Shown here piece by piece: positions 4,711 to 40,334 of a stretch of 64,000 nucleotides of DNA. A model generated the notes under the pieces. That model worked only from the letters and a program-made list of their open reading frames with translations, ran no database searches and was not told the origin of the DNA. The stretch spans positions 155,971 through 219,970 of the forward strand of contig JAAZNV010000006.1 of the NCBI GenBank assembly GCA_012798115.1. Direction: 5' to 3'. Source of the stretch: a candidate division WWE3 bacterium (GTDB taxonomy: Bacteria; Patescibacteriota; WWE3; UBA101185; UBA10185). The position numbers were made by a program, and so were the translations under genes. The stretch's first letter is position 1, and the number at the start of each line of letters is the position of its first letter.

Positions 4711-4712
4711 GT

Positions 4713-8096: not shown

Positions 8097-8106
8097 TTAT
8101 GCGTAT

Positions 8107-11393: not shown

Positions 11394-11401
11394 GTTAATT
11401 T

Positions 11402-15926: not shown

Positions 15927-16021
15927 ATTTAAGCAACTTATAGAACACTTAAAGGTGGAAAAAAACTGAAAAATCAATATAATAACAGTTGCCAGTATGC
16001 CCCGGCAAAGAATGCATCAAT

Positions 16022-18620: not shown

Positions 18621-18654
18621 TCATTTTGCTACAAGAAGATATAAATTATAGAAT

Positions 18655-20758: not shown

Positions 20759-21571
20759 CTAATGTGCCTTACCGTGGCATCTCTTATACTTTTTCCCGCT
20801 ACCACATGGGCAAGGTTTATTACGTCCAACCTCAATAATATCGCTGCCAGTCGGTTTTTTAGCTTGTTCTAGGAAAATTCCAGCTGCGCCAATCATGAGA
20901 CCACTTTGATTAGTAATCTTCTTTGTAGGATAAGATGGAATCAACGTCCATAGTAATTCATGACCAATCTGTCGTATGCTCGCTAACTCGGCGCCAGTTA
21001 GATCAGTCCAATTTCTGCCATCATTACTAACTTTCCAACCCAGAGAATTCTGTCGAGTGAGCTCAATGTACTTCTTTTCAAGCTCTGGGTCGACATGAGC
21101 ACCTCCGTCCTGGTTTGCCACATATAGCACAATATCTTTTCTGGTAAAGCTGTTGCTATTAGCGTCAGTAAATATTTCCTCATGCCAATAATCATCGAAA
21201 TTGAGCATCCTGGTTTGGCCAAATGGTAGATCATCCAAATATGGAGTATATCCGCTTTTACTACCCGAAGCTATTGCTAGGAGAGCAGAGTAACTACCGA
21301 CTCGAACCATATTTGGTTTGTCTTCTTTTGGCACAGCAGTACTTAAAAATTTACCAGATTTCAATCCAAGCTGACTAAGTAAAGAATGGGATTTTAGTGT
21401 GTCATGGACGAGAATGCGTATGCATGTAGCCATTGGCTTGGCCATTAGGGTATTCCCAGTATCGTATGCATCAGCCAAACGACTTAATAACTCGAGCTGT
21501 TCATCTAAATTTCTCTTTAATTCGACTTGTGTCTGCCTAATATTAGTCATACTATACCTGGCTGAGTACAT
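20759..21571 (-). CDS. Protein with a C-terminal SEC-C zinc-binding motif and an uncharacterised N-terminal domain.
   Basis: The C-terminal '[16 protein letters not shown]' matches the SEC-C motif (as in the SecA C-terminus and YecA). The N-terminal ~240 aa match no family I recognise. An alternative start is the ATG at 21550. Confidence 0.6.
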
Positions 21572-21585
21572 AGATCTAGAACCAC
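21557..21585. repeat. Short repeated element, copy 1 ('CTGGCTGAG...TAGATCTAGAACCA'), just 3' of the STAS-like gene.
   Basis: It shares about 22 of 27 nt with the copy at 20716-20744 and contains the palindromes TAGATCTA and TCTAGA. Confidence 0.45.
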
Positions 21586-21601
21586 GCTGACTGCTGATAA
21601 A

Positions 21602-21889
21602 TCAATGTCTGGGATTTCCAAGTCTCAGCTTTTTAAGTAGTTCAAGAGTAGTTTTAACTGATAGGTTTTCGTCGTTTACAAAATGAACACGATTGCCAAA
21701 TCTGTCGATCAGATTAGTAATGAATTCATCTGCCCAGGAAGGTGTGAAAGTGGTAACACCTTCAAAATCAATATCCAATACTTCGTTTTCAGACATATTT
21801 CTCAACAATGGTTCTATGGCTGCAAGTGCCTCACGCCCATCCTGTCTTGATGTTAGAAGATCTCCAAATTTTTTAAGTTCTATTTTCAT
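21602..21889 (-). CDS. Small STAS-like protein (anti-sigma-factor-antagonist-like). It resembles the DUF4325 family from memory.
   Basis: It is 95 aa, and 'EVLDIDFEGVTTFTPSWADEFITNLIDRFG' resembles the conserved core of DUF4325/STAS-like partners of GHKL kinases. It sits 9 nt downstream of the ATPase gene. Confidence 0.55.
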   Translation of the reverse strand: MKIELKKFGDLLTSRQDGREALAAIEPLLRNMSENEVLDIDFEGVTTFTPSWADEFITNLIDRFGNRVHFVNDENLSVKTTLELLKKLRLGNPRH

Positions 21890-21898
21890 ATTTTTTAC

Positions 21899-22627
21899 TT
21901 AAAATTTAATTAATGCTAAACAGCCACTATAATACAACTCAGTTTTGTATATCTCCATCTTTTTAACTTCGTTATTATCGTTATTAATAGAAACTTTAGC
22001 GCCACCACTGTAGAAGTTTATTTCAATAGCTTTGTTTAATGCTACCTCTAGCACAAATTTAAGCCCATTTCCCCTTGCCTCAGGAGATCTACCTGAGATA
22101 ACTTCAGTAAATGCAACATGCAAAGCATCTTCATCATTTCTAACATCTGGCTTTACTCTCTTTAGCGTCCTTAAGATGCCCTGTCCTCTGTCTGCTAGGG
22201 CTATTTGTCTTTTGTTTGTGTCATACGAAAAGAATACTCCTGAAATATCCGGCCAGTTTCCTAGATTATGATCAAATGAATTATTTCCTATCTCTCCCGC
22301 TATGGCAACAATAAGTGGGTAATACTCTTTTAGATCCTGTAACTTTTCTAGAGCACTTTGTAGTTTTGAAAGTCTTCCTTTGAATTCTGAGCTAGTTGGA
22401 CAATAAAATGTGTTTTCTGGTTCTATTGCAGGACCTAACACCCACTCTGTTGCTAAAGCAAATATATCCTTCTTAAATAATTCTAAATCTGTCTGGGAAT
22501 AGTAACGGTGGCCACCTACACTCTTTTTAGCGGGTAGTTTTCCACTTTTATCCCAGCGTCTAAGTGTAGCGATTGATATACTTAGTTGTTTAGCAGCTTT
22601 GCTTATTGTTAGGTTGTCGTTTGTCAT
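21899..22627 (-). CDS. MerR-type HTH fused to a GHKL (HATPase_c, RsbW/SpoIIAB-like) kinase/ATPase domain.
   Basis: The N-terminal 'ISKAAKQLSISIATLRRWDKSGKL' is a MerR-like HTH. The N-box 'AGEIGNNSFDH', G1 'ADRGQGI' and G2 'ARGNGLKFV' are arranged as in anti-sigma-factor kinases. Start taken at ATG 22627, because the listed start at 22639 is a TTG. Confidence 0.65.
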   Translation of the reverse strand: MTNDNLTISKAAKQLSISIATLRRWDKSGKLPAKKSVGGHRYYSQTDLELFKKDIFALATEWVLGPAIEPENTFYCPTSSEFKGRLSKLQSALEKLQDLKEYYPLIVAIAGEIGNNSFDHNLGNWPDISGVFFSYDTNKRQIALADRGQGILRTLKRVKPDVRNDEDALHVAFTEVISGRSPEARGNGLKFVLEVALNKAIEINFYSGGAKVSINNDNNEVKKMEIYKTELYYSGCLALIKF

Positions 22628-22689
22628 AAATCTATACAATATTTATATCACAATGGATAAATCTATGCAATATTCGTCAAATCTATGCA
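22628..22689. promoter_or_regulatory. Three direct repeats 'AAATCTAT(A/G)CA' in the leader/promoter of the HTH-GHKL gene. Putative operator.
   Basis: Copies lie at 22628-22638, 22659-22669 and 22679-22689, spaced 31 and 20 bp apart. The first abuts the start codon. Confidence 0.4.
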
Positions 22690-22968: not shown

Positions 22969-24186
22969 ATGTCTAAAAGTATGCAGAATTACAATATAAT
23001 CTGCCTGTCCAACCAACTTTGGGATTTTCCTTTATGGACGAATAAACGTCATGTTATGGGTAGAATGCCAAAATTTGGAAATAATGTTCTTTTTGTAGAT
23101 CCTCCAATTAGAATTGGAAGAGTTTTCTTTAAGTATTTGTTGAAGGGGAAGTGGCCTTTATCCAGAATACTGACAAAAAGAATGAAAACAAAAGAAGGCG
23201 TAGTTGTGTTTACTCCTTTAAGCCTTTCTTTATCAAAATTTACATCCTTAAAACATGCTAAGGATATAAATAAAATATCATCAAAAGTATTTGATAAAAA
23301 CAAAAAGACTATCCTTTGGGTATACCATGTTGAAATTCCAGGTCTTGAAAATTACTTAAGAAACATCAAACATGACTTCTTAGTTTATGATTGTGTTGAT
23401 AATTATGAAGCCTTTCCAAAGTATAATACTCCTGAAAAAAGAAAATTTATTGCAAGTCAAGAAAAGCTTTTAGCATCTCGTGCAAATATTGTTTTTGCTA
23501 CAACTCCTGGTCTTGTTGATAAACTTAAGAAATATAATTTAAACTCTCACTTTGCTCCTAATGTTGGAGACTATGAAAGATACTTTGGCCTAAAAGATAA
23601 GAAGTTTAGCACGCCTGAAGATTTAAATGGTATAAAACATCCAATAATTGGCTTTACTGGTGCTGTTGATGAGTATAAATTTGATAAGGAGTTGTTCAAG
23701 AAAGTTGCTCTTGATTATCCGACGTACTCATTTGTAATTGTTGGTCCAATGGCATTAAAAGATAAATCCTCCTCTAAAAAGGATTTAGGTTTAGATTGTA
23801 TTAAGAATGTATATTTCCTAGGAGCAAAAGAATATCCAGAACTCCCAAGATACATAGCTTCGTTTGATGAAATGATCATTCCATATCAGCTTAATAGTTA
23901 TACTGTTGCTGGTTGTTTTCCTGTAAAGTTTTGGGATTATCTTGCTGCAGGTCTTCCTGTTGTTGTTACAGATCTTCCAGCATATACACCTTTTGCAAAC
24001 GTTTGTTACATCTCTAGAAATTCAAATGAATTTTCACAGAATATTAGGAGAGCCTTAGAAGAAGATAATCTAGAAAGAATAAAGCAAAGACAGATTATTG
24101 CTAAAGAAAACACATGGGAAGGTAAGGTGTTAAAAATGTTATCTTTAGTAGAAGATTCTATGCATGTGAAAAATACAACGAAATGA
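22969..24186 (+). CDS. GT-B fold glycosyltransferase (GT1/GT4-like).
   Basis: 'IIGFTGAVDEYKFDKELF', 'FVIVGP' and 'VAGCFPVKFWDYLAAGLPVVVTDLPAY' are present. Confidence 0.5.
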   Translation: MSKSMQNYNIICLSNQLWDFPLWTNKRHVMGRMPKFGNNVLFVDPPIRIGRVFFKYLLKGKWPLSRILTKRMKTKEGVVVFTPLSLSLSKFTSLKHAKDINKISSKVFDKNKKTILWVYHVEIPGLENYLRNIKHDFLVYDCVDNYEAFPKYNTPEKRKFIASQEKLLASRANIVFATTPGLVDKLKKYNLNSHFAPNVGDYERYFGLKDKKFSTPEDLNGIKHPIIGFTGAVDEYKFDKELFKKVALDYPTYSFVIVGPMALKDKSSSKKDLGLDCIKNVYFLGAKEYPELPRYIASFDEMIIPYQLNSYTVAGCFPVKFWDYLAAGLPVVVTDLPAYTPFANVCYISRNSNEFSQNIRRALEEDNLERIKQRQIIAKENTWEGKVLKMLSLVEDSMHVKNTTK

Positions 24187-25349
24187 AGATACTTTACGTT
24201 TTAAATTCAAGTAAATATGGTGGGATGGAATGGCATGTTTATGATCTTATTAAAGGAATGATTCAAAAAGGCCATGAAGTTTTTGTATGGTGTCCTGGAG
24301 GTGTAATGAGTGATGCTTATTCTAGTTTAGGGGCAAAAACTTTTAATAAGGAAATATTAAAAGATATTGATTTAAAGTATATTAGTGAGTTGTCTTTGTT
24401 TATTAAAGAAAATAACATTGATATTGTTCATGCTCATGAGCTAAAAGCAGCCTCAAATGCTCTTCTTGCAGGGAACAAAGCAAAAGTTAAAGTTTTGATT
24501 ACTCACACTCACACTCCAATATCAGAATGGAAAATACCTGAATTTAAGAAGAAGATAAATGAAAAAGTTTACAGTTACTTAGTTAATAGGTACTCAAGCT
24601 CTGAGATAGCTCTTACTAAATCTAAGAAAAAGGCAAAAATGAAAGAAGGAATAAAAGAAAACAAACTTACTGTTATTCCAAATGGTCTTGAGACCTTAAA
24701 GTTTAACGTTAGTCCCAACCAAAGAGCAGATTATGCAGAAGAAATTAGGAGTAAATACAATATCCCCAAGACAGCATTTGTTTTTGGTAATGTTGGAAGG
24801 CTTACCGAGGAAAAAGGAATAGATGTTTTGATTAAAGCTTTTAGCAAATTTTTAAAATCTGATTTATTTCATCAAAGAGACTTTTATCTTTTAATTGCTG
24901 GGGGAGGTAAACTTGAAGAATCTTTAAAACAATTAACACAAGAACTTAATCTTGATGGAAAAGTTTTTATTACTGGTGCTTTTGATGATCACGATAAGGT
25001 AAAATATTATTGTTCTTTTGATGCATTTGTGTTTCCTTCTCTTGCAGAAGGATTTGGAATTGTTCTTCTTGAAGCTTTGTATATGGGCCTTCCTACTGTT
25101 TGTTCTAATCTTGAAGTGTTAGAAGAAGTTGGGGGTGATAGTGTAAAGTACTTTGAAGCTGGAAATGATATCTTGTTGTCTAAGGCCATGATTGATGAAT
25201 ATGAAATATCAAGTAAAGATGGAAAATCCGTATCTGATAGATCTAAACTACGAGTTGAATCTTTGTACTCCATGGAAAAGTTTGTTAGTAATTACTTAAA
25301 TTTATATACAAAGTTAATGGAGGAAGCTGCAGCTAAGAGGAAGAAATAA
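24183..25349 (+). CDS. GT4 glycosyltransferase.
   Basis: 'FGNVGRLTEEKGIDVLIKAF', 'LLIAGGGKLEE' and 'FPSLAEGFGIVLLEALYMGLPTVCS' are present. Confidence 0.8.
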   Translation: MKILYVLNSSKYGGMEWHVYDLIKGMIQKGHEVFVWCPGGVMSDAYSSLGAKTFNKEILKDIDLKYISELSLFIKENNIDIVHAHELKAASNALLAGNKAKVKVLITHTHTPISEWKIPEFKKKINEKVYSYLVNRYSSSEIALTKSKKKAKMKEGIKENKLTVIPNGLETLKFNVSPNQRADYAEEIRSKYNIPKTAFVFGNVGRLTEEKGIDVLIKAFSKFLKSDLFHQRDFYLLIAGGGKLEESLKQLTQELNLDGKVFITGAFDDHDKVKYYCSFDAFVFPSLAEGFGIVLLEALYMGLPTVCSNLEVLEEVGGDSVKYFEAGNDILLSKAMIDEYEISSKDGKSVSDRSKLRVESLYSMEKFVSNYLNLYTKLMEEAAAKRKK

Positions 25350-25352: not shown

Positions 25353-26489
25353 ATGAAAGGTATGAAGGTATTAATGTTAGGAAGAATAGGCTTAATGAAG
25401 GCAAGAGGAGGGGATAGAATTCAAGTTGAAAATACTGCTTCTGAGCTTAGAAAACTTGGCGTTGATGTAGATATTAAAACAAATATGAAGTTTAACCCTT
25501 GGGAATATGATCTAGTACATATTTTTCAGCTTGATTGGACACCTGAAACTTATCTTTATGCTAAGAAAGTTAAAAAATACAATAAACCTATTGTTCTTTC
25601 TCCTATTCATCATAGTGTTGAAGAAGTAAAGAAATTTGATGATGAATTTGTTTTTGATTTTAGGAGATTATCTAAAGTTTTGTTTAAAGATCAATTCAGA
25701 AGAGATACTTTTAAAAATATATACAGATCTTTTTTTAATCCAAGAATGATTGTTCCAACGCTTTATAGTATCTTTATTGGATTTAAAAATATGCAAAAAA
25801 GAACCTTGAATATGGTAGATGTTGTGCTGGTTCAAACCGTAAAAGAAGCTGAAGATTTGAAGAAAACATTTAATGTGGATTTTAAGTGGCATAAAGTGCT
25901 AAATGGTGTAGGAAAAGCTTTTATTGATTCAAAGGAGTATAAAAATAAATTTAGTTTTGAAGACTATATTATATGTGTAGGAAGGATAGAGCCTAGAAAG
26001 AATCAGTTAAGTGTGATAGAAGCAGTAAAAAGATTTAGGGAGGAAGAGAAGAAAGATGTGCAGCTTGTCCTTATAGGTCAAATGAGCTTAATTAAACATT
26101 TTGAATTTAACTACTTAATTAAGAAGTGCTTTAAGAAGTATAGATGGATTCATCATGTTAACGGTGTTTCTTATTCTGATATGCCTTCTTATTATCACTT
26201 TGCAAAGGTTTGTGTATCAGCAAGTTGGTTTGAAACAACAGGGTTAACTAGCCTTGAAGCTTTATATTGTGGAACAAATTCTGTGGCTGCAGGACTGCGA
26301 GCTAAAGAATATCTTGGAGGGTATGCTTCATTTTGCAAGCCTGATGATGTTAATTCCATTAAAGATGCTATTAAGAAAGAATACTATGCCTCAAGACCTG
26401 TAATTAATGACAAAATTAAGGAAGAATATACTTGGAGCAACGCAGCAAAGAAGACTTTTGAGGTTTATAATGAAGTTCTAAAGATGTAA
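25353..26489 (+). CDS. GT4-like glycosyltransferase.
   Basis: 'ICVGRIEPRKNQLSVIEAV', 'LVLIGQMS' and 'WFETTGLTSLEALYCGTNSVAA' are present. Confidence 0.55.
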   Translation: MKGMKVLMLGRIGLMKARGGDRIQVENTASELRKLGVDVDIKTNMKFNPWEYDLVHIFQLDWTPETYLYAKKVKKYNKPIVLSPIHHSVEEVKKFDDEFVFDFRRLSKVLFKDQFRRDTFKNIYRSFFNPRMIVPTLYSIFIGFKNMQKRTLNMVDVVLVQTVKEAEDLKKTFNVDFKWHKVLNGVGKAFIDSKEYKNKFSFEDYIICVGRIEPRKNQLSVIEAVKRFREEEKKDVQLVLIGQMSLIKHFEFNYLIKKCFKKYRWIHHVNGVSYSDMPSYYHFAKVCVSASWFETTGLTSLEALYCGTNSVAAGLRAKEYLGGYASFCKPDDVNSIKDAIKKEYYASRPVINDKIKEEYTWSNAAKKTFEVYNEVLKM

Positions 26490-26490: not shown

Positions 26491-29346
26491 ATGCTTGAAA
26501 TTGGAGTTTTAATACTTATTTTTATACTTTCTTACATTTTGATCTTACGAAACTTCAAATTATCTTTGTATGTTTTGATTATATTGTCTGTCTTAATGCA
26601 CAAAGAGCTTTTTAGCTTTTATACATGGGACTTAATGCCAATTAGAGTTTTCATGCTTGCCATTTTTTGTGCTGGAATAACACAAATGTTTTTGTGTTTA
26701 AAGAGAACAAAAAGTTTGAAGCCACTTTTTTCTTACCTTAAAGATCCTTTTGTTTTAATCCTTTTTCTTTTGTGGCTTGTTAGAGGTATTTCGATTTTTA
26801 ATACAAAAAATTTCCAAGCAAGTATCTCTTTATATGCTTTTTTTACAACAGTAGTAGCTTTAGGAATATACATTTATTTGACTTTTAAAGATAAACCTCA
26901 AGAACTATTAAGATATATAAGGTTTTATTCCTATGTTGTGTTTATATTAACTTTATTTGGGTTGTTTCAATTAGCTTTGTACTACAAAACAGGAAAGGTA
27001 GTTGGAGCTATGTGGCCTGTTCCAGGAAAAGTTCCAAGAGTGGGTAGTTTGTTTTGGGACGTCAATCATTATGGATCCTTACTTGCAGCTATTCTCCCTG
27101 TGCTTGGGGTGTTTATTCTTACTGACAAAGGAGCTAAGAAAAAGCTGTTAGATATTATAATGTTTGGTTCTGTTTCCTTTGCTCTCTTGTTAACTAATTC
27201 CAGGTCTGCATGGATGCTTGGAGGTTTTGCACTTCTTTCTTTTATTACTTTTCTTCTCTTAAAGAAATTTGGTTTTAAAGGTATCGTCTATATAGTTTTA
27301 GCTGTTGTTTTAGTGGCTACCCCCATGCTTGCTGAATATAGCAACAAAAAAAGCCCTTTTAGACAAAAAGTAAGAGATGCCTTTCATTATAGAATAGATT
27401 CTTTTGACTCTCATCTTATGCTTTTAACAGGAGCTTATCAGATATTTGAAGATTATCCTGTATTAGGTGGAGGTTATGGGTCGTTCTTTGAGCATTTTAG
27501 TAAAACTGAAATTGCTCCAACCTTTTTTAGTAGAGATCCTGCAGCTTTAAATACTAGAGTTCCTGCTCACACTATTTGGGGTGAAGCTTTATCAGAAACT
27601 GGAATGGTTGGCACTTCTGTGTTGATTGTATTAGCATTTCTATTTTTACTTGCTCCTTTGTACGTGTTTTTTAATAGTGATTACAAGAATGTGTCATTAT
27701 TAGGTTCTGCTATGTCATCTGTGTTTATTGGTTGGTATATTGCTGGTATCTTTTATTCTTATAACTCTGAATTCTTTTGGATTATCTCATTTCTTTATCT
27801 TGTGTGGTCCGTTGGACATATTGGTAGTGGCTACTTTAAAAAGATAATTAACTACTTCTTTGGTAAGTCAGGATTCCTTTTAACAATAATATGTTTGTTA
27901 GCTTTCTTTTTAATATTCTTTAAACTTGGAGCAAATCACTTGATTCCTTGGGATGAAGCTATATATGCAAAGGTTGCAAAGAATATGGTTGAAAATAATC
28001 AGTATTTTGTTCTCCATTGGGATAATTTAATCAAAGGATGGTTTGAAAAACCTCCTCTTTATATGTGGATGATGTCTGGCTTTATGAAAGTATTAGGGTT
28101 TACGTCTCTTGCTGCTAGGCTTCCAAGTGCAGTGTTTGGATTCTTAACTGTGATTCTAGTTTTTACTTTTGCAAATAAACTATTTAACAGAAAAACTGTT
28201 GCATTCATATCATCCTTATCTATTTTGACTACAGTTCATTTTTTGTACTATTCAAGAGCTTCTATGCTTGATGTTACTACAACTTTCTTTATCACTCTTG
28301 CTTTGTATTTTTATTGGTGTGCTAAAACAAATGAAAAGAAACCTATGTGGATGTTATCAGGTGTTTCTGTAGGATTGGCTATTATGACTAAAGGCTTTGT
28401 GGGCCTTTTGCCTCTTTTAGTGATCAGTTTATATGAAACTTATCTTTTCATATTTGAGAGACAAAAACTAGATAAGAAGCTGTTCTTAAATTATCTAAGC
28501 TTATTTGGATTTGGTTTGTTGGTTTCTGCTCCTTGGCATATTGCTATGTATAAGATGTTTGGTCAGGAGTTCATAAATAAATACTTCATTTATCACGTTT
28601 GGGATAGGGCAACTATGGCAATAGAAGATAAAGGCAATCCTTTTTTCTGGTATATTGTTGTTCTTAAGGTTAGTATGAGGATTTGGTTTATTGCACTCCT
28701 TGGAGCTTTGCCATTGGGTTTGTACTTGTCAATTAAAAAAGATAAACGATTTGTATTTTTATCCATATGGTCACTAAGTATCTTTTTCTTTTTTTCTTTA
28801 GCAAAATCCAAACTTACTTGGTATATTATTCCAATCTATCCGCCTCTTTGTATTCTCGTAGGTTATTTTATAGAAAGATGCTTGAACTTTGTTATGAATA
28901 GGTTTAAGTCTTTTAACAACGAAACGTTTAAATTTTCATCTTTATATATTTTTGTAATCCTTTCCTTGTTTTATTTGTTCTTGAATAGAAGTTTGGTGTA
29001 TACAGATGATTTGAATGGTTCAAAAGCTAAGCTCTTGGAAATGGAAAGTGAGTATTTTGGTACCAGTTACACTGTTTATATGTCAAGAATGGAAGAACCA
29101 ACTCCTCTTTTCTATCTAAAAAGCCCTTATAAAATCGTTGATTTTAGGGCAGATAAAGAAGATAGGGTTCCAAGTGTTCCTGACAATGAGCCTTTAATTT
29201 TAATCACTAAAAAGGGCAGATATTCTGAATATGTAGCTGGGTATTCTGTGCCATCAAAAATTGTTATGGAAGATGGAGATTGGGTTTTGTGGTACTTGCC
29301 TCCTAAGACAGGGGTGTTTAATCTCCTTAAGAAACCAAATAATTAA
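26491..29346 (+). CDS. Fusion membrane protein with an N-terminal O-antigen-ligase-like (Wzy_C/WaaL-like) domain and an ArnT/PMT-type GT-C glycosyltransferase domain, plus a C-terminal soluble region.
   Basis: The N-terminal domain has 'LLLTNSRSAWMLGGFALLS', 'YPVLGGGYGSF' and 'AHTIWGEALSETGMVG', which are O-antigen-ligase signatures. From about aa 470, 'PWDEAIYAKVAKNMVENNQYF...WFEKPPLYMWMMSGF' is a PMT_2/ArnT-like GT-C signature. Confidence 0.65.
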   Translation: MLEIGVLILIFILSYILILRNFKLSLYVLIILSVLMHKELFSFYTWDLMPIRVFMLAIFCAGITQMFLCLKRTKSLKPLFSYLKDPFVLILFLLWLVRGISIFNTKNFQASISLYAFFTTVVALGIYIYLTFKDKPQELLRYIRFYSYVVFILTLFGLFQLALYYKTGKVVGAMWPVPGKVPRVGSLFWDVNHYGSLLAAILPVLGVFILTDKGAKKKLLDIIMFGSVSFALLLTNSRSAWMLGGFALLSFITFLLLKKFGFKGIVYIVLAVVLVATPMLAEYSNKKSPFRQKVRDAFHYRIDSFDSHLMLLTGAYQIFEDYPVLGGGYGSFFEHFSKTEIAPTFFSRDPAALNTRVPAHTIWGEALSETGMVGTSVLIVLAFLFLLAPLYVFFNSDYKNVSLLGSAMSSVFIGWYIAGIFYSYNSEFFWIISFLYLVWSVGHIGSGYFKKIINYFFGKSGFLLTIICLLAFFLIFFKLGANHLIPWDEAIYAKVAKNMVENNQYFVLHWDNLIKGWFEKPPLYMWMMSGFMKVLGFTSLAARLPSAVFGFLTVILVFTFANKLFNRKTVAFISSLSILTTVHFLYYSRASMLDVTTTFFITLALYFYWCAKTNEKKPMWMLSGVSVGLAIMTKGFVGLLPLLVISLYETYLFIFERQKLDKKLFLNYLSLFGFGLLVSAPWHIAMYKMFGQEFINKYFIYHVWDRATMAIEDKGNPFFWYIVVLKVSMRIWFIALLGALPLGLYLSIKKDKRFVFLSIWSLSIFFFFSLAKSKLTWYIIPIYPPLCILVGYFIERCLNFVMNRFKSFNNETFKFSSLYIFVILSLFYLFLNRSLVYTDDLNGSKAKLLEMESEYFGTSYTVYMSRMEEPTPLFYLKSPYKIVDFRADKEDRVPSVPDNEPLILITKKGRYSEYVAGYSVPSKIVMEDGDWVLWYLPPKTGVFNLLKKPNN

Positions 29347-30563
29347 GGTTGAGTTAAGATTGCTTTCTTCTTTCCTTGGTGTTTCCATATTAATATCATT
29401 GTTGAAAACAAAGCTATTAAGGCTCCAACTAAGTTGGAGATTGCTATACCTTGAAGTGATAGGATTGGAGTAAGCACTATTGAAAGAATTAAAAAGACAA
29501 TAAGTTTTCCTAAGCTTATATACATAATATATTTTGTTTTTTCTTCTATGAAAAAGTAGTGTTCCATAAATGTATGAATTGATGTGAATGCAGAAGCAAA
29601 AATTAAAAGACCAAGAAGTGGTATTGATTGAGAAAATTTTTCCCCAAGAAATCTTGAGATGAATATTTCTGATGCAAATGTTCCAATAAATGCCATCACT
29701 ATTATTAAGGTTGATATGCTTAAGATTTCTTTAAAATCATACTCCATATGTTGTTTCTTTCTATATGCATTTTTTGGAAGAAGGACAGTAAACACAGATA
29801 CTGATGCTAAAGTTAGGATATTTGTTACCTTTTCTGCTATTGAAAATATTCCAACACTAGAGAAGTCTTTTGCTATTTTAGCAATAGAATTAGCTATTGA
29901 TGGCCACCCTTCATAAATTAGTTGAGATATGCCTGCTGGATATGATTCTTTTAGTAAATTTAATGTTTGCAAAGCACTAAACTTGAATTGCTTGTACTTT
30001 CTTGGAAGAAAAGTAATCATAAGTGTGCTTGATAGAATGGATAAAGAAAATACTTCAAATGTTTGAGTTAAGCTTGGGTTTATAGATTTAGTAAACATTA
30101 AAATAGCAAATGTTCCTTTTATTAATGCAGGAAATGTGTTTAAAAGTACTAAGTTAAAGAACTTTTCTTCTTTTTGAAAAATTGGATTTAGTGTGTAATT
30201 TATAGAGTAAGCAGCAAGTCCCAAGACAAAGTATAGAATTATTTTTAAATCATTGAACTTAAATAATAGTAGTACACCAACTGATATTGGGATGGATATT
30301 AAAAGAAGAATTATTTTTAATGTATAAAATGTATTCAAGAGAGACTTATCTTCTGTTGATATTGATTTAGCTACGTATACAGAATTTGTACCAAAGTCTA
30401 TTAATTTTGATGTTGCTACAAGTAGTGTTGCTAGGAGGGCATATTTTCCAAATGAATCTAGGTCTAAAGTTTTTGCTGCTGCTGATATGAAGGCAAAACC
30501 AAGTACAGCATTGAATATATTTCCAATTCCTACAAGTACTATCTTTTGGATGGATTTGTTCAT
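29343..30563 (-). CDS. Polysaccharide flippase of the Wzx/MOP superfamily.
   Basis: About 12 transmembrane segments are predicted and the layout fits a flippase in a polysaccharide locus. Start at the internal ATG 30563 avoids a 55-nt overlap with rmlD. Confidence 0.6.
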   Translation of the reverse strand: MNKSIQKIVLVGIGNIFNAVLGFAFISAAAKTLDLDSFGKYALLATLLVATSKLIDFGTNSVYVAKSISTEDKSLLNTFYTLKIILLLISIPISVGVLLLFKFNDLKIILYFVLGLAAYSINYTLNPIFQKEEKFFNLVLLNTFPALIKGTFAILMFTKSINPSLTQTFEVFSLSILSSTLMITFLPRKYKQFKFSALQTLNLLKESYPAGISQLIYEGWPSIANSIAKIAKDFSSVGIFSIAEKVTNILTLASVSVFTVLLPKNAYRKKQHMEYDFKEILSISTLIIVMAFIGTFASEIFISRFLGEKFSQSIPLLGLLIFASAFTSIHTFMEHYFFIEEKTKYIMYISLGKLIVFLILSIVLTPILSLQGIAISNLVGALIALFSTMILIWKHQGKKKAILTQP

Positions 30564-30583
30564 TATGTATATGTTAGCAGAAT

Positions 30584-31480
30584 TTAATATCCAGGTGTTT
30601 TTAACTGATATAAAAAGGAGTTTGCGCTTTCTTGCCATGTTTTAAGCTTTATGCCTAAGGATCTTTGTGTAATGTCATTTCTAAGAGTTGAATATAAAGC
30701 CCTTGGAATTTTGGATGTTTTAATAAATTCTGACATTGATGCAGCCTCAATCTTATTAGTGTCTCTGCCAGTCTTTCCAATGATGTATTTAGCAAATTCA
30801 TAGTGTGATGTTGAGTTAGTTGACGTAACATGAAACACTCCTTCTTTTTCAGTTTTTATTATTATGTTTATAACTTCGCAAAGTTCATCAATAAAAGTAG
30901 GGCATATTGTATTATCTGAGAACAAGGGATACATTGTGTTTGAGTCATACATTTGAAGAAAGAGCCTTGCAAAGTCCACTTTTTTTTCATATTTAGCTCT
31001 GTATGGGTATGCAATTCTAATTATTGTGTACTGAGTTAATGTTTTAACCATCTCCTCTGCCTTAAGTTTTGTGTATCCATACCAACTTAGTTTGTTTGCA
31101 TTATCTTCAGGTGTTGAGTTTTCATCGTAGTATTCTTCTCTTTTTTCTGTTCCAGGAAATACTAGGTCCGTACTTATGTGTATAAAGCGTATATTATTGG
31201 TTCTTGCTACATTTACTAAGTTCTTGGTTCCTTCTACATTTACCCTCCATGTTAAAGCATCTGTGTTTCCTCTTTCTGTTTCAGACTTTTTAACATCAGT
31301 GACAGCAGCAAAGTGAATTATTAAGTTTGGTTTATATGTCTGTATGTAAGACTCTACAGCCTTTTTATCTGTAATGTTAAGCTCAAGCTCAGTTGGGTCT
31401 AATATTGTTAAAACCTCAAGCGAAAGTTCTAAATACCTCGACCCTACAAGACCAGATGATCCTGTGATTAATACTTTCAT
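30584..31480 (-). CDS. rmlD: dTDP-4-dehydrorhamnose reductase.
   Basis: 'MKVLITGSSGLVGS' is a Rossmann motif. Length and gene context fit RmlD, and the gene overlaps rmlC by 4 nt. Confidence 0.8.
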   Translation of the reverse strand: MKVLITGSSGLVGSRYLELSLEVLTILDPTELELNITDKKAVESYIQTYKPNLIIHFAAVTDVKKSETERGNTDALTWRVNVEGTKNLVNVARTNNIRFIHISTDLVFPGTEKREEYYDENSTPEDNANKLSWYGYTKLKAEEMVKTLTQYTIIRIAYPYRAKYEKKVDFARLFLQMYDSNTMYPLFSDNTICPTFIDELCEVINIIIKTEKEGVFHVTSTNSTSHYEFAKYIIGKTGRDTNKIEAASMSEFIKTSKIPRALYSTLRNDITQRSLGIKLKTWQESANSFLYQLKTPGY

Positions 31481-32049
31481 ATTTTAAATTTCTCCGGAAA
31501 TAGTTGCCTTAAAGTAGGGTTATTTTCGTCTCTTTTAGATACAATTGGATTGTTGATTGGGTATTTTATATTAACATCAACATCATTCCAAATAAGGCCC
31601 TTTTGTTTAATCTGATCGTACTCTTTATCCATTAAGTACATAAACTCAAAAGGTGTTTCTCCAGTTGCTAAAGCTACTATTCCCATCCCTTCATCTTTAA
31701 ATATTGTTATTTGTTCTTTTTCTCCTGTTTCAAAGGTCTCATACCTTCCAAAGGTTTTTGATTCTGGTCTCATGTCCACTATTGCAATAAAGCCCTTTCC
31801 ATGAATGGGGTAGATAAGTTTGGAAGCAGTTTCAGAGTGTATACCTCTTAGAACACCTGGATTGGATACTGCATAATTCCATGTTTTGATGTGAAACTTT
31901 TTTCCTATCTTTTTTTCTAATAAACTAAGCTTTAAAGCTTCACGAAAGTACCCTCTAAAATCTTCAAAAGGTACTTTGTATATCACCCACAAACCATCTA
32001 TAGAAGTGCTTTTTATTACGCTTTCTGAGTAGTTGGGATCATTTTTCAT
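31477..32049 (-). CDS. rmlC: dTDP-4-dehydrorhamnose 3,5-epimerase.
   Basis: Cupin fold with 'RGIHSETASKLIYPIHGKGFIAIVDMR' and 'FEFMYLMDKEYD', lying between rmlB and rmlD. Start at internal ATG 32049. Confidence 0.8.
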   Translation of the reverse strand: MKNDPNYSESVIKSTSIDGLWVIYKVPFEDFRGYFREALKLSLLEKKIGKKFHIKTWNYAVSNPGVLRGIHSETASKLIYPIHGKGFIAIVDMRPESKTFGRYETFETGEKEQITIFKDEGMGIVALATGETPFEFMYLMDKEYDQIKQKGLIWNDVDVNIKYPINNPIVSKRDENNPTLRQLFPEKFKI

Positions 32050-32051
32050 GT

Positions 32052-33065
32052 TTATTCTTCGCCAGGCACATTTAAGAACAACCATTCCTTATGATTCATA
32101 GTCCAGTCCACAGTCTTTTTTAATCTGTCTTCAAATGGTTTTTTGAAGTCCCAACCCATCTCATGTAGCTTTGATCCGTCTAAGGAGTACCTTAAGTCAT
32201 GACCAGGTCTACTGCTATGAAAATCCACTAATTTGTATTTTAATTGCATGCCCATCATATCTGCTACCATTTGGGCAAAATCTAGGTTATTTATTTCCTT
32301 TTGACCCCTAATGTTATATTTATCGCCATTAGTTGTTTGATTGTTTATTAAAAACAACACGGCGTCAGATATATCTCTAGCGTGAATATAGAACCTGGAC
32401 CCAGGTTTTGTCTTTGTTTTATCTGTGTGGATTAACACTTCCTCTCCACGTAGTATCTTTTTCATTATCTTAGGTAGAAACTTTTCTGGATGTTGTCTTT
32501 CGCCTACAGCATTCATGCAATGTGTGATAACAATTGGAAGTTTATAAGTATTTTCATATGCTATACAAAGTTCTTCTCCCCCAGCTTTTGTTGCTGAATA
32601 AGGGTTGCTGGCCTTATATCTATCCCACTCCTTATAATCCACACCTTCTGGTGCTGGTCCAAATACTTCATCTGTGGAGAAGTATACAAATTTTTGTAAA
32701 CCTTCTACTTTCCTAGCATAATCAAGTATGTTGGCGGTACCTACTACATTATCCATTACAAATTCCATCGGGTATGTAATGGATCTATCTACATGACTAC
32801 TTGCAGCAAGGTGTGCGATATAGTCGACTTGACCAATAAAATTAATAGTAAGGTCATTTAAAGGTGCCTTGAGGTCGTGCCATACGTCTTTCACCCTAGG
32901 TTTAAATTCATCCCATCTGTCTATAGAAGCTATTCTGTTACAGGTTCCGGAAACATCCAACCTATCTAATGTGACTATATCCCAATCTGTGTTTTTTAAT
33001 ATGTGTTCTACAAAATGAGAGCCGATAAAGCCATGTGCTCCCGTAATTAATATTTTCTTTGGCAT
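32052..33065 (-). CDS. rmlB: dTDP-glucose 4,6-dehydratase.
   Basis: 'KKILITGAHGFIGSHFVEH' plus the catalytic 'YSATKAGGE' (YxxxK) are present, and the protein is 337 aa. Confidence 0.9.
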   Translation of the reverse strand: MPKKILITGAHGFIGSHFVEHILKNTDWDIVTLDRLDVSGTCNRIASIDRWDEFKPRVKDVWHDLKAPLNDLTINFIGQVDYIAHLAASSHVDRSITYPMEFVMDNVVGTANILDYARKVEGLQKFVYFSTDEVFGPAPEGVDYKEWDRYKASNPYSATKAGGEELCIAYENTYKLPIVITHCMNAVGERQHPEKFLPKIMKKILRGEEVLIHTDKTKTKPGSRFYIHARDISDAVLFLINNQTTNGDKYNIRGQKEINNLDFAQMVADMMGMQLKYKLVDFHSSRPGHDLRYSLDGSKLHEMGWDFKKPFEDRLKKTVDWTMNHKEWLFLNVPGEE

Positions 33066-33131
33066 CGTGGAACCTCCTTGTAAGAAACATTTTACAATGA
33101 CGTAATTATAACATAGTATAGGATCACGAAT

Positions 33132-34094
33132 ATGAAAAAGGTATCTGTTTTAATATCAAATACAAACACTTGTGATGTAATGCGGTTGTGTCTGCAAAAC
33201 TTAAAGAAGATAAAGAAGGAAGAATATCCGGAATTGGAAGTGATTGTAGTTGACACTTCCTCTAGAGATGACTCTGTAAGTATGGTAGAAAAAGAGTTTT
33301 CATGGGTAAATGTAATAGTAGCTCCAAATAACGGTCTTGCTGCTAGTTTAAATATTGCTTTAAAATTAGCTACAGGGGATTACATTTTGTATTTAGGGAC
33401 AGATGGGTTTCCAAAGGAAGGAACTATCAAAGGTTTGGTTGACTACTTTGAGAATATTGATAATTCTAAAGTTGGGGCTGCTACTGTTAAATTGTTAACA
33501 AGAGATGGTAGACAGGATATGGATGGTCATAGGGGACTCATAACTCCTTGGACGGCATTTACACATTTTACAAAATTAGAACTTGTTTTTCCAAAGAGTA
33601 AATTATTCGGTGGTTACTTCTTAACTTATAAAGACTTAAATAAAGAGCATGAGATAGATGCTTGTATAACCCACTTTCTTTTTGTAAGGAGGGGCGTTCA
33701 AGATCAAGTTGGTAGCTGGGACGAAGATTTTGTAGTTTATGGAGAAGATATAGATATGTGTTATAGAATAAAGGAATTAGGATGGAAGATAATGTACTTG
33801 CCTCAGTTTTTAGCAGAACACTGGAAAGGTGTTTCTGTTGGAAGAAAAATAACTTCAGACGTCAAAACCTCCAATGCGGGTATAACTCTCAAAGGTGTTG
33901 ACTATACAAAAGGTGAGCTTAGGGTTCAGATGAGAATATTGTCTACAGGAGCAATGAAGATTTTTTATGATAAGCATTTGAGAAAAAAGTATCCATTTTT
34001 TATTACATGTGTTGTTATGTTTGTGATAAAGTTTATGACCATCTTGAGGATAAAGGCTCAAGAGATAACTAATAAGAAGATGGGTATAAAGTGA
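33132..34094 (+). CDS. Family 2 glycosyltransferase.
   Basis: 'VSVLISNTNTCDVMRLCLQNL', 'VIVVDTSSRDDS' and 'YILYLGTDGFP' are present. Confidence 0.7.
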   Translation: MKKVSVLISNTNTCDVMRLCLQNLKKIKKEEYPELEVIVVDTSSRDDSVSMVEKEFSWVNVIVAPNNGLAASLNIALKLATGDYILYLGTDGFPKEGTIKGLVDYFENIDNSKVGAATVKLLTRDGRQDMDGHRGLITPWTAFTHFTKLELVFPKSKLFGGYFLTYKDLNKEHEIDACITHFLFVRRGVQDQVGSWDEDFVVYGEDIDMCYRIKELGWKIMYLPQFLAEHWKGVSVGRKITSDVKTSNAGITLKGVDYTKGELRVQMRILSTGAMKIFYDKHLRKKYPFFITCVVMFVIKFMTILRIKAQEITNKKMGIK

Positions 34095-34095
34095 T

Positions 34096-37572: not shown

Positions 37573-38226
37573 ATGATTATGAAATTTGACTCGTACGAGT
37601 TTGGAAAAAGAATAATGGATGTGTTTGGTGCTTTAGTTGGAATTATCTTTTTTTCACCTGTTATGATTCTTGCTGCTTTGTGGGTGAAAGTAGTTTCTCC
37701 GTCTGGTGGTGTGTTTGCTGATATTCCAAATAGAGTAGGTAAAGATAAGAAACCCTTTAGATTTCTTAAATTTAGGTCTATGGTTCCTGATGCTCATAAT
37801 TTTATGTTAAACAACCCAGAATTGTATAAGAAATATGTGGAGAATAATTACAAGATAAACCCTGATGAGGATCCAAGATTTTTACCAGGAGCAAAATTTG
37901 TTAGAAAGTATAGTATTGATGAACTCCCTCAATTTTTTAATGTTTTAAAAGGAGATATGAGTATAGTAGGTCCAAGAGCTTATTTTTTTTCTGAGATTCA
38001 AGAGCAAGGAGAAAAGTATTCAGAAGTAAAGCCTTTGCTAGATACTGTGTTTAGTGTAAAGCCAGGAATAACAGGATTATGGCAGGTAAGTGGCAGATCA
38101 GAAATAGGATTCCCAGACAGGGTTAGGCTTGATGCTACTTATGCTAAGAAAAGATCATTGCTTTATGATTTGCTTTTAATTCTTAAAACGCCGTATGTAG
38201 TTATTACAGGAAAGGGAGCTTTCTAA
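37573..38226 (+). CDS. Priming sugar-phosphate transferase of the bacterial sugar transferase family (small PglC/WbaP C-terminal-domain type).
   Basis: A single N-terminal transmembrane segment is followed by 'RFLKFRSMV', 'DELPQFFNVLKGDMSIVGPRA' and 'GITGLWQVSGRS'. Confidence 0.85.
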   Translation: MIMKFDSYEFGKRIMDVFGALVGIIFFSPVMILAALWVKVVSPSGGVFADIPNRVGKDKKPFRFLKFRSMVPDAHNFMLNNPELYKKYVENNYKINPDEDPRFLPGAKFVRKYSIDELPQFFNVLKGDMSIVGPRAYFFSEIQEQGEKYSEVKPLLDTVFSVKPGITGLWQVSGRSEIGFPDRVRLDATYAKKRSLLYDLLLILKTPYVVITGKGAF

Positions 38227-40334
38227 TGGCAAATACAAGATTCTGGGGGTCTAAACCTTCCAATAACGGTAAGATAAAAGGTCTTAGTAATGATTCAGCT
38301 AACAACAATGGTGGCAATACCAATAGTGTTAATAATATTAATATTAACAGTGTTAGTGACAATTCATTAGCATCTAATAAAGTTGGTTTAAGACCATCAC
38401 AAGCTATATCAAGTTTATCTAATCCACCTAAAATTAAATTTCCAAAAGTGGAGAATAAAAAAAATATGAAAAATGCTAAAAAAGCTGGGGCTATTGCCTT
38501 AGGAATAATTATTTCTCTTCTCTTATTTCTTTACTTATTGGTAGCTAAACCTGCTTTAGCTGTTTATTCAACTGCAAAGGTATTGAAAACTGATTTTGTA
38601 AAAGTTAGTGAAGCAATGAAAAACAGGGATCTTGTTGCGTTAAACAATGAGCTTGATAACACGGAAAAAGATTTGAATAACTTAAGAAGTGCAAAAGAAA
38701 AGAAATTTGGGTGGGCTAAGAATCTTAAATTATTTAAAGCAAATGAGTTTTATTCAGACTTAGATAGATTTATTAATGCAGGAATATATGCAATAGATGC
38801 TTTAAGGGAAACGTCTACAATAATTACCCCTTTTGCATCTGCAGCAGGACTTAAAGTATCCCCTGATCAAGAACTACCTGAAGCAGAAGGGTTAATGGAA
38901 GCATTTCAAGGTTGGATTTCTGTAATGCCTCAAGTGGCTGATCAAATGGATGGTGTAATTGAAAAGGTTGCAAAAATAGGAGATGAACTAAAATCTATAA
39001 ATGTAGATAAATATCCAAAAAAGATTGGAAAGTTTGCAATTAGATCAAATGTTGAATTCTTAAAGAACAACCTAGCAAAGGCAGATGATTACGCTCCGGA
39101 TATTAAGAAAGCTTTAACAATTATACCTGAGATGCTTGCCGTGGGAACTCCCACTAAAAGATACATGATTATCATGCAAAATGATAAAGAAATAAGACCA
39201 ACTGGAGGTTTTATGACTAATTATGCAACATTTAAGATCACTAACGGTCTTCTTGATTCAGATTTTACTTCAAAAGATATGTACAGCATTGATTTGGCTT
39301 TACAACCTTTAGATGATGCTGGATATGACTTTCCAGATGCTCCTGTTGCTTATATGAAGCTTTTGAAGGTAGAAAGGTGGTTTGTTAGAGATATGAATGC
39401 CTCACCAGACTTTGTGACTTCTATGGATCAGTTTATGCAATACTACAATATGGCTGGAAGATATAATCCTTATGAAATAAAACCTATTGATGGGATATTT
39501 TCCATTGATACGTTTGTGATACAAGAACTTTTAGATGTTACAGGTCCTGTTACTGTAAATGGCGTAACTTATGCAAAGGACAATGTTGTCTTAGAACTTG
39601 AAAAGATTGCTTCTCTTGCTTTAGCTGAGCAAGCAAACAGAAAGAAAGTACTCGGTGATCTAATGCAAGGTATGTTAATAAATGTGTTTGAGTCTGATAG
39701 TAGTATTTGGCCAAAATTACTAGAAAAAGGAGCAGATTTAGCGGCTAGAAAGCATATTCAGGTTTATATCTTTGATGCAGAAGCTCAGTCTTTAATAGAT
39801 AGTTATGGTTTTGGAGGAAGAATAACAGAGCAAGTTGATGGTGATTACTTAGCTGTAATTTCTACTAACCTTGGGGGAGACAAGACAAACTGGTTTACTT
39901 CAAAGGAAGTAACTCACACTCTTGAAAAAAGCAATAATAAATGGATGGATACAGTAAAGATAAAATACACATATACTCAACCAAGTGATGATTATATTGC
40001 CCTTGTTAAAAGGTTTAGAGATTGGGTAAGAGTTTATGTTCCTATAGGATCAGAGTTGATATCCGTTGAAGGCTCAGAAGATTCTACTCTTAATCTTACT
40101 GACCAAGAAAGGAATAAGGTATGGTATAGTGGCTATCTTGAATTAGGCCCTGGCGAATCAAAAGAAATCACTTTCAAGTATTACCTTCCTTCTGATGTTA
40201 AGATAGATACAGTCTATAATTTGACCATTCAAAAGCAGGGTGGAACAGATAAAGAAAAGTATATTATTATCTATGGAAATACTAAGAAGGAAATAAACTT
40301 GGATAAGGATACAAAAGTTAGCATAGATTTATAA
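38226..40334 (+). CDS. Membrane-anchored 702-aa protein with an N/S-rich low-complexity N-terminus, one transmembrane segment and a large extracytoplasmic domain. Function unknown; possibly DUF4012-like.
   Basis: 'NNNGGNTNSVNNININSVSDNS' is followed by the transmembrane segment 'AIALGIIISLLLFLYLLVA'. The gene lies directly downstream of the priming transferase. Confidence 0.5.
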   Translation: MANTRFWGSKPSNNGKIKGLSNDSANNNGGNTNSVNNININSVSDNSLASNKVGLRPSQAISSLSNPPKIKFPKVENKKNMKNAKKAGAIALGIIISLLLFLYLLVAKPALAVYSTAKVLKTDFVKVSEAMKNRDLVALNNELDNTEKDLNNLRSAKEKKFGWAKNLKLFKANEFYSDLDRFINAGIYAIDALRETSTIITPFASAAGLKVSPDQELPEAEGLMEAFQGWISVMPQVADQMDGVIEKVAKIGDELKSINVDKYPKKIGKFAIRSNVEFLKNNLAKADDYAPDIKKALTIIPEMLAVGTPTKRYMIIMQNDKEIRPTGGFMTNYATFKITNGLLDSDFTSKDMYSIDLALQPLDDAGYDFPDAPVAYMKLLKVERWFVRDMNASPDFVTSMDQFMQYYNMAGRYNPYEIKPIDGIFSIDTFVIQELLDVTGPVTVNGVTYAKDNVVLELEKIASLALAEQANRKKVLGDLMQGMLINVFESDSSIWPKLLEKGADLAARKHIQVYIFDAEAQSLIDSYGFGGRITEQVDGDYLAVISTNLGGDKTNWFTSKEVTHTLEKSNNKWMDTVKIKYTYTQPSDDYIALVKRFRDWVRVYVPIGSELISVEGSEDSTLNLTDQERNKVWYSGYLELGPGESKEITFKYYLPSDVKIDTVYNLTIQKQGGTDKEKYIIIYGNTKKEINLDKDTKVSIDL

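Follow-up and report, generated by a model that had tools for sequence, protein, structure and literature searches.

A lineage-wide fusion of a WaaL-like and an ArnT-like membrane module in a surface-glycan gene cluster of candidate division WWE3

Results

A single reading frame encodes two distinct membrane modules

We analysed a 64,000-nucleotide (nt) stretch of contig JAAZNV010000006.1 from a candidate division WWE3 bacterium (the window; all positions refer to it), in which a 951-residue membrane protein, here called the fusion, is encoded within an island of glycan genes. Its gene is the fourth of a GT4-GT4-GT4-fusion run (GT, glycosyltransferase). The start codon lies 1 nt past the stop codon of the upstream GT4 gene, and the 3' end overlaps the convergent gene for a Wzx-type flippase by 4 nt (Table 1). 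The initial annotation, made from the sequence alone, had read this open reading frame (ORF) as an O-antigen-ligase-like domain joined to an ArnT/PMT-type glycosyltransferase, and both the ORF itself and its Pfam matches bear out a single protein fusing two modules. Wzy_C is matched by residues 228-378 (E = 3.8e-11, 43.4 bits against a gathering cut-off of 31.7), PMT by residues 466-670 (E = 2.9e-18, 66.8 bits) and PMT_2 by residues 520-682 (E = 2.6e-21, 76.9 bits), the last two also exceeding their curated cut-offs. NCBIfam matches are confined to the C-terminal half, where the ArnT equivalog, which has a cut-off of 567 bits, scores 132.3 over residues 466-838 and Agl23 reaches 44 bits. Since the Pfam and NCBIfam matches split between the halves, the protein consists of two distinct halves rather than one 951-residue family; hidden Markov models assign no single family to the whole.

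The sequence motifs quoted in the initial annotation were all located in the protein where it had placed them, namely TNSRSAWMLGGFALL at residues 235-249, GGGYGSF at 326-332, AHTIWGEALSETGMVG at 359-374, DEAIYAKVAKNMVENN at 488-503 and WFEKPPLYMWMMSGF at 517-531. Its estimated boundaries, with an N-terminal half reaching to about residue 440 and a C-terminal half starting at about 470, agree with our division into an N-terminal module, a short linker and a C-terminal module from residue 460. The soluble C-terminal domain that it had postulated appears in the AlphaFold2 model as an alpha/beta domain.

Table 1. Features of the fusion gene and of the surrounding glycan cluster (positions in the window).
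Feature	Position (nt)	Strand	Residues and remarks	Evidence
Whole fusion ORF	26491..29346	+	951 residues; ATG start; internal stops absent	
N-terminal module, WaaL-like GT-C_B fold, 12 transmembrane helices	26491..27822	+	1-444	AlphaFold2, Foldseek, topology, invariant residues
Outer-loop motif PRVGSLFWDVNH, family-specific	27034..27069	+	182-193	
Pfam Wzy_C segment	27172..27624	+	228-378; contains R238, H308, GGGYG loop 326-330 and H360	
R238	27202-27204	+		
H308	27412-27414	+		
H360	27568-27570	+		
Cytoplasmic linker, K-rich	27823..27867	+	445-459; poorly conserved, length varies in homologues	
C-terminal membrane module, ArnT-like GT-C_A fold	27868..28998	+	460-836	
D488/E489	27952-27957	+		
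E519/K520	28045-28050	+		
D594	28270-28272	+		
R706	28606-28608	+		
Y778	28822-28824	+		
C-terminal extracytoplasmic alpha/beta domain	28999..29343	+	837-951; ~115 residues, after the last transmembrane helix	
Three consecutive GT4 genes, tightly packed with the fusion	22969-24186, 24183-25349, 25353-26489	+		Pfam, synteny
Convergent gene for a Wzx-type flippase (Pfam Polysacc_synt)	29343..30638	-		Pfam, synteny
rmlD, rmlC, rmlB (dTDP-rhamnose synthesis)	30584..33065	-		Pfam
GT2	33132-34094	+		Pfam
GT4	34096-35271	+		Pfam
GT4	35227-36363	-		Pfam
GT4	36406-37548	+		Pfam
Small Bac_transf phosphoglycosyl transferase (WbaP C-terminal type), initiating a polyprenyl-PP-linked glycan	37573..38226	+		Pfam
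DUF4012 protein	38226..40334	+	702 residues; conserved last cluster gene before recO	Pfam, synteny in loci L001 and L004

The fusion is conserved across its lineage

A gene of this kind could be spurious if an assembly join or a sequencing frameshift near nt 27850-27900 had run two adjacent genes together, as the initial annotation had cautioned, and split versions of both genes do occur in other lineages. Against this, the frame is open throughout, and between nt 27780 and 27930 it is the only one open, stop codons crowding both other frames. A homologue search covering 5.8 billion proteins returned 311 relatives, and the 120 best of them, which we inspected, are all full-length, collinear fusions of 894-1033 residues from many independent assemblies and sources, with identities ranging from 99% to 47%. 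All of these 120 carry Wzy_C and PMT_2, and the PMT match is missing in one only, so that the same fusion recurs across the homologues surveyed. Their database names are 'glycosyltransferase family 39 protein' or 'hypothetical protein', from Patescibacteria or candidate division WWE3. Among 50%-identity representatives, searched exhaustively, we found dozens of full-length fusion clusters (845-1160 residues, down to ~27% identity), together with proteins comprising the N-terminal half only (428-460 residues) or the C-terminal half only (~460-500 residues).

A scan of species-representative genomes yielded 80 loci, all in Patescibacteria and mostly labelled WWE3, including the complete genome RAAC2_WWE3_1, CP006914.1. 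Both halves are present at 76 of these loci, and over this set the ORF runs continuously across the junction in 73 species-level genomes, CP006914.1 included. Our strict continuity test flagged seven genomes, of which four were false alarms due to alignments running past the stop codon; the three truly broken loci come from assemblies of low quality, in which frameshifts or Ns are scattered outside the domain boundary. Because the great majority of genomes are intact and the other three are broken away from the junction, an assembly or frameshift explanation is effectively excluded, by reading frames, homologues and genomes rather than by read mapping, and we rate its chance as negligible. The fusion is genuine, conserved throughout the lineage and not an assembly artefact.

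The N-terminal half has a WaaL-like fold and a ligase-type histidine

We modelled the fusion with AlphaFold2 using a 35-sequence alignment, and obtained a mean predicted local distance difference test score (pLDDT) of 86.9 and a predicted template modelling score of 0.86. In Foldseek searches against the PDB, the N-terminal half matched WaaL (7tpg_B, E = 7.9e-5, target TM-score 0.56) and, weakly, RodA (6pl5_A, E = 0.08). With the N-terminal half as query, phmmer found nothing among PDB sequences at E ≤ 10, and a 35-sequence profile of the N-terminal domain gave no hhalign match to E. coli WaaL, WbbH (Wzy), WzyE or RodA. A profile of 161 sequences aligned weakly with full-length E. coli WaaL (E = 0.008), and with residues 177-366 of Cupriavidus WaaL at a probability of 94.7% (E = 6e-8), the sequence of this fragment having been derived from an alignment of E. 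coli WaaL with 7TPG. The latter alignment, which we used to map residues, pairs R238 with R191, H308 with R265 and H360 with H313 (R215, R288 and H338 in E. coli). The Wzy_C coordinates agree with this mapping, as residues 205-354 of E. coli WaaL cover profile positions 6-146 and residues 228-378 of the fusion cover positions 6-148.

In WaaL, R191 and R265 bind the phosphates of undecaprenyl diphosphate (Und-PP), and H313 activates the acceptor in ligases, whereas in the related inverting polymerases and SEDS proteins an Asp or Glu takes the place of this His (Meitil et al. 2024, PMC10920833). O-oligosaccharyltransferases (O-OTases) use the same His, and the H324A variant of PglS is inactive (PMC12800693). 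Both R238 and H360 are invariant in the fusion family, and the Asp or Glu typical of inverting polymerases is not seen, residue 360 being His. Since a His, not Asp or Glu, occupies the acceptor-activating position, the N-terminal half bears the hallmark of a ligase or an O-OTase, enzymes that transfer glycans en bloc. Conservation extends to the surrounding loops. The 77-residue loop 285-361 contains 24 invariant residues, and R301, seven residues before H308, is conserved in the WWE3 group only. The outer-loop motif RVGSxFWDxNH (residues 183-193) is invariant, with R183, D190 and H193 kept even in stand-alone and distant relatives.

The C-terminal half resembles ArnT

The best Foldseek match of the fusion is ArnT (5f15, E = 9.5e-13, target TM-score 0.64), and below it rank other GT-C_A enzymes, namely ALG12, Pmt4 and PglB/STT3/AglB. 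ArnT, from Cupriavidus, is also the sole match of the family profile among PDB sequences (E = 3.5e-39, residues 466-796). The alignment brings ArnT D55 to the D488/E489 pair, the DE motif of the first outer loop in which D488 is the D55 equivalent, E84/K85 to E519/K520, D158 to D594, R270 to R706 and Y345 to Y778, the numbering of the PDB chain being offset by +3 from the residue numbers used here. We take these six ArnT residues to be the catalytic and undecaprenyl phosphate-binding ones. Their counterparts D488, E519, K520, D594, R706 and Y778 are invariant in the 35-sequence alignment. By Pfam, by profile alignment and by fold, the ArnT/PMT-type assignment of the region from about residue 470 onwards holds. 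The half matches Pfam PMT and PMT_2 and has the DE motif (D488-E489) of PMT (GT39) enzymes; it is nonetheless nearer to ArnT than to the PMTs, since Pmt4 and Pmt1/2 rank under ArnT in Foldseek. No Pfam match to a MIR domain, which eukaryotic PMTs carry, was found in the fusion.

Predicted topology of the two modules

The model helices place both termini of the N-terminal module in the cytoplasm, and the loops on the inside are short and rich in Lys and Arg. In this predicted topology, 44 invariant loop residues of the N-terminal half face outward and none face inward. Because the K-rich, 15-residue linker is cytoplasmic, the DE loop would lie outside as in ArnT. If the helix at 617-655 is taken as a hairpin, which is our own reading of the model, the loops bearing R706 and Y778 and the C-terminal domain 837-951 would be outside as well, the domain sitting where the periplasmic domain of ArnT sits. 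Both active sites are predicted by the model to lie on the cytoplasmic membrane's outer face.

Each half also occurs as a separate gene

In three independent metagenomic contexts (L010, L011/L012 and L013), a stand-alone Wzy_C gene is directly followed on the same strand by a separate PMT/PMT_2 gene, with GT4 genes adjoining. The stand-alone Wzy_C proteins have 431-460 residues and are 30-33% identical to the N-terminal half in a multiple alignment; the PMT/PMT_2 partner has 483-497 residues and is 31-33% identical to the C-terminal half in two of the contexts. The key residues are unchanged where each half stands alone, and the fused-versus-adjacent pattern of the genes argues that the two activities work together. 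One of these loci (L011, 10001-16911, seen also in L012) reads GT4, Wzy_C (460 residues), PMT_2 (497 residues), GT4, a second Wzy_C (428 residues, P0182) and Wzx, and both Wzy_C paralogues share the R/H/H signature formed in the fusion by R238, H308 and H360. Three more PMT-type genes lie ~8 kb upstream in L011.

Distant, shorter fusions (P0208, P0234, P0238 and P0266; 845-852 residues, ~27-30% identity) keep the R/H/H signature of the N-terminal half, but the DE motif of their C-terminal half no longer has its Asp and reads TES or EEE in place of WDE. At the locus of P0208 (L005), the fusion lies amid two DUF2079 proteins and two further PMT_2 membrane proteins.

The fusion lies in a conserved Wzx-containing cluster

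A GT4 homologue is directly upstream of the fusion in 64 of 67 related genome loci, and the convergent Wzx gene is directly downstream in 52 of 65. Beyond the last gene of the cluster in Table 1, which encodes the DUF4012 protein, follow recO and then ordinary housekeeping genes, and WWE3 genomes at 49-52% identity show the same arrangement. Within this conserved core, the rml/GT2/GT4 block (30584-35271) forms an insert that varies, being present in the related loci L001-L003 and absent from L004. The version in L001-L003 adds rmlA and differs in gene orientation; no rmlA was found among the scanned ORFs of the window.

The DUF4012 protein has an N/S-rich cytoplasmic tail, one N-terminal transmembrane helix (~88-107) and, outside, a large domain. 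No PDB sequence is related to it, and it may be an auxiliary envelope protein, a chain-length control factor or an acceptor. DUF4012 is a Gram-positive-associated family enriched in the candidate phyla radiation (CPR) and found in a Bifidobacterium capsule locus; the CPR envelope has been described as Gram-positive-like, and these bacteria have been argued to lack a Gram-negative envelope (PMC6744442). Domain scans of the 64,000-nt window detected no LCP ligase, and no Wzz/PCP chain-length regulator either. Lipopolysaccharide (LPS) genes and tRNAs are likewise absent from the window. No GtrA- or GtrB-like partner adjoins the C-terminal half, and because none of the four GT2 enzymes of the window is ArnC/GtrB-like, the donor for this half must come from elsewhere in the genome.

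The 8 kb upstream (12032-20040) encode five membrane proteins without a Pfam match. One, a polytopic protein of 577 residues (14193-15926, +), belongs to a Patescibacteria/WWE3-specific family, its members named 'hypothetical proteins', with 85 relatives, a few of which match DUF6311, and is syntenic with the fusion cluster in L001 and L004. Its AlphaFold model (pLDDT 83.6) has a GT-C_A fold for which STT3, AglB and PglB are the best matches (E ~1e-4), ahead of ArnT, and N37-D38 in its first loop are nearly invariant. Going by the model, this protein may be a transferase, so far unannotated, that acts en bloc or on a lipid-phosphate sugar; we considered it as a Wzy-type polymerase and dropped the idea, the model being oligosaccharyltransferase (OST)/ArnT-like. 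Another, of 461 residues (18655-20040, +), is 57% identical to its orthologue, a WWE3 PMT_2 protein (L001, 5066-6439), weakly matches the NCBIfam LA_3751/LA_3752 putative glycosyltransferase family and is again syntenic in L001 and L004; on sequence similarity it is assigned as a third GT-C_A-type enzyme of the island. The remaining polytopic proteins, of 749 (12032-14281), 151 (15989-16444) and 731 residues (16425-18620), all on the + strand, match no family at all. The 151-residue protein has four transmembrane helices and the size of a GtrA-type flippase with no sequence match, and the 749- and 731-residue proteins have large soluble domains. The island is unusually rich in extracytoplasmic GT-C enzymes.

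Further upstream (42-12028, +) lies a second glycan block on one strand, with genes for GT2, a B12-binding radical SAM protein (997-2577), GT4, GT2, GT4, GT4, GT2, a methyltransferase, GT4 and three methyltransferases, one of these last three being DUF268-like; its content points to a glycan with heavy methylation or other modification. The stretch that separates the two blocks (20759-22639, -) holds genes for a SEC-C-motif protein of 270 residues, a DUF4325/STAS-like protein of 95 residues and a MerR-type regulator of 246 residues, which may form a regulatory unit for the downstream cluster.

Discussion

We read the fusion as a bifunctional membrane enzyme acting at the end of a conserved, Wzx-dependent surface-glycan pathway of WWE3-type Patescibacteria, most likely in a prime-and-ligate order. 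Combining homology, modelling and analogy, we put the probability of this reading at about one half. Judging from the gene families, the phosphoglycosyl transferase and the GT4 enzymes would build an oligosaccharide on polyprenyl diphosphate, and Wzx would flip it outward. The WaaL/PglL-like N-terminal module (R238, H308, H360) would then transfer the flipped oligosaccharide en bloc to an acceptor, while the ArnT-like C-terminal module (D488/E489, E519/K520, D594, R706, Y778) would transfer one sugar from a polyprenyl-monophosphate donor. In the prime-and-ligate order, the weakest step of the scheme, the ArnT-like module would put a sugar on the acceptor and the ligase module would attach the glycan there. 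We favour this order because WadA, the only characterised fused ligase, works so, because the N-terminal half has the ligase-type His and because GtrA/GtrB partners are not adjacent. Lipid A is an improbable acceptor, given that CPR bacteria presumably have no outer membrane; likely candidates are a polymer of the cell wall, a membrane glycolipid or a protein at the surface. The initial annotation had proposed coupled transfer of a lipid-linked glycan, and of this the coupling of the two halves is upheld by the split gene pairs, by conservation across the lineage and by the precedent of WadA, whereas Wzy_C does not settle that the N-terminal half is a ligase.

Several observations weigh against the prime-and-ligate reading. 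The position of WaaL R265 is occupied by H308, which is invariant in the fusions and in their stand-alone relatives, so that the N-terminal half, lacking the second Und-PP-binding Arg, is not a canonical ligase. Pfam Wzy_C occurs in 82% of beta-linking Wzy proteins (PMC12502699), and because the domain thus also covers polymerases, the ligase label depends on the catalytic His signature. An ArnC/GtrB/PpgS-type synthase is absent among the four GT2 enzymes of the window (the best ArnC score, 32 bits, is below the cut-off of 529), the window yielded no candidate acceptor gene, be it for an S-layer protein, a pilin or anything else, and the order of the two reactions is drawn from analogy. Moreover, the N-terminal half supplies the sole Wzy_C domain of a cluster with Wzx, an initiating transferase and many GTs, which is the usual place of a polymerase. 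It could accordingly be an inverting, beta-linking Wzy that polymerises repeat units, with the C-terminal half adding a side-branch sugar from a polyprenyl-phosphate donor to the growing chain, in the manner of GtrC or GacL in three-component glycosylation systems, and another enzyme, encoded elsewhere in the genome, attaching the product to the wall. Wall glycans in monoderm bacteria are usually attached by LCP enzymes rather than by WaaL-type ligases, which fits such a division of labour, and the two Wzy_C paralogues of L011 might be one polymerase and one ligase. We also sought a separate polymerase among the five unannotated upstream membrane proteins and found no remote similarity to either half of the fusion, except a weak signal between the 461-residue protein and the C-terminal half; with the modelled 577-residue protein being OST/ArnT-like, no other polymerase candidate was found. 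Yet the invariant His at the acceptor-activating position is that of ligases and O-OTases, both L011 paralogues share the same R/H/H signature, the chain-length regulator usual beside a polymerase was not detected in the window, and the partners expected of a side-branch module are not beside the C-terminal half. We therefore consider a polymerase joined to a decorating enzyme possible, though on the unlikely side.

The catalytic His, the GT-C_B fold and the Arg residues are equally those of PglL/PglS/WsaB-type O-OTases, and the fusion could transfer its glycan to Ser or Thr of surface proteins such as an S-layer protein or a pilin, with a PMT-like C-terminal half acting on the same proteins. 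Protein or S-layer glycosylation was the example offered by the initial annotation, and such an acceptor is plausible in an organism without LPS. The Pfam PMT/PMT_2 matches, the structural matches to Pmt4 and Pmt1/2 and a host without an outer membrane (PMC6744442) would suit protein O-glycosylation. The sequence of the C-terminal half is far nearer to ArnT than to the PMTs, as judged from its sole PDB sequence match and its best Foldseek match, and it has no MIR domain; nor does the window offer a protein substrate. With an initiating transferase, a small number of GTs and Wzx but no chain-length regulator, the conserved cluster does resemble general O-glycosylation loci. Because an O-OTase needs no priming sugar, however, this model leaves the tight fusion unexplained, and we think it improbable. 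It might finally be supposed that one half is a dead scaffold or substrate-binding module and that the protein has a single activity, as the replacement of WaaL R265 by His in the N-terminal half and the loss of the DE-motif Asp in the distant clade of P0208 and P0234 could hint. Dense invariant polar residues are kept by the WWE3 family at the expected active-site positions of both halves, and the stand-alone versions of each half retain the same residues, which makes a dead half very hard to credit.

The N-terminal half belongs to GT-C_B/Wzy_C (CAZy clan GT-C1, with SEDS proteins, O-antigen ligases and inverting polymerases) and the C-terminal half to GT-C_A/ArnT-PMT, and neither is a member of canonical WaaL or ArnT. 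With WaaL (GT121; 7TPG, Cupriavidus metallidurans), the N-terminal half shares Wzy_C, the 12-helix GT-C_B fold, a large outer loop before the tenth transmembrane helix, the counterparts of R191 and H313 and a predicted Und-PP-oligosaccharide donor. It differs in that the likeness is seen only by profile and structure, with no phmmer match in the PDB, in H308 at the position of R265, in the extra motif RVGSxFWDxNH and in the second GT-C module. The acceptor is unlikely to be lipid A-core, because the host is probably without LPS. ArnT (GT83; 5EZM/5F15) is the best sequence and structural match of the C-terminal half and shares with it six key residues and a topology with an external C-terminal domain. 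A score of 132 bits against a cut-off of 567 nevertheless marks the half as ArnT-like, not ArnT; the Zn-site His of ArnT is not aligned, there are no arn genes near the fusion, and a lipid A acceptor is not expected.

The closest published concept is WadA of Brucella and Mesorhizobium, a GT25-GT121 protein in which the fused GT25 adds the last core sugar that its own ligase domain then uses (PMC9938171, PMC10920833). As in the fusion, a ligase-type module stands in one chain with a GT of the same pathway, a likeness of logic and not of family. In WadA the partner, a soluble GT25 of the cytoplasm, works with a nucleotide sugar, which puts the two sites of the protein on either side of the membrane, whereas the partner in the fusion is a polytopic GT-C enzyme with a predicted lipid-phosphate sugar and both sites are predicted on the outer face. 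The order of the modules is also reversed, the ligase of WadA being C-terminal. PglL, PglS and WsaB share with the fusion the GT-C_B fold, Wzy_C, the Arg residues and the catalytic His; their en bloc transfer from Und-PP is proposed for the fusion too, and they occur in organisms and pathways that do without LPS. The fusion has no match to a PglL-specific domain, and none of the known enzymes carries a fused ArnT/PMT-type module. Inverting Wzy polymerases (GT125-129) belong to the same clan, GT-C1, and the fusion gene lies next to Wzx in a cluster of the repeat-unit type; they differ in the Asp or Glu that stands at the position of the ligase-type His (PMC10920833).

The first report of bifunctional O-antigen ligases, on WadA, dates from 2023. 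Our literature search on Wzy_C with PMT_2, on O-antigen ligases and glycosyltransferases of WWE3 or Patescibacteria and on GT121 found no description of the fusion, and its sequences already stand in public databases as 'GT39 family' or 'hypothetical' only. Going by sequence and model, its parts appear familiar and the combination with a second membrane GT-C module on the same face appears new. We suggest, tentatively and with more doubt than conviction, that it may be the first described tandem fusion of a GT-C_B ligase and a GT-C_A polyprenyl-phosphate-sugar transferase, by which WWE3, as a whole class of ultra-small Patescibacteria without LPS, would attach its principal surface glycan to an acceptor other than lipid A, with no LCP-type ligase involved. 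If true, the union of a ligase with a second lipid-carrier-dependent GT-C enzyme would represent a new architecture, linking two extracytoplasmic steps of glycan transfer on one membrane face.

En bloc transferases also hold practical interest for glycoconjugate engineering. For annotation, the fused and split forms provide a 'Rosetta stone' link between the Wzy_C and PMT_2 families, which can guide the naming of orphan proteins, in their thousands, that are labelled 'GT39 family' or 'O-antigen ligase family'. Being near-universal and syntenic in WWE3, whose genomes are tiny, the fusion probably makes a core envelope glycoconjugate of these bacteria, whose surface chemistry is essentially uncharted and likely relevant to an attached or symbiotic lifestyle.

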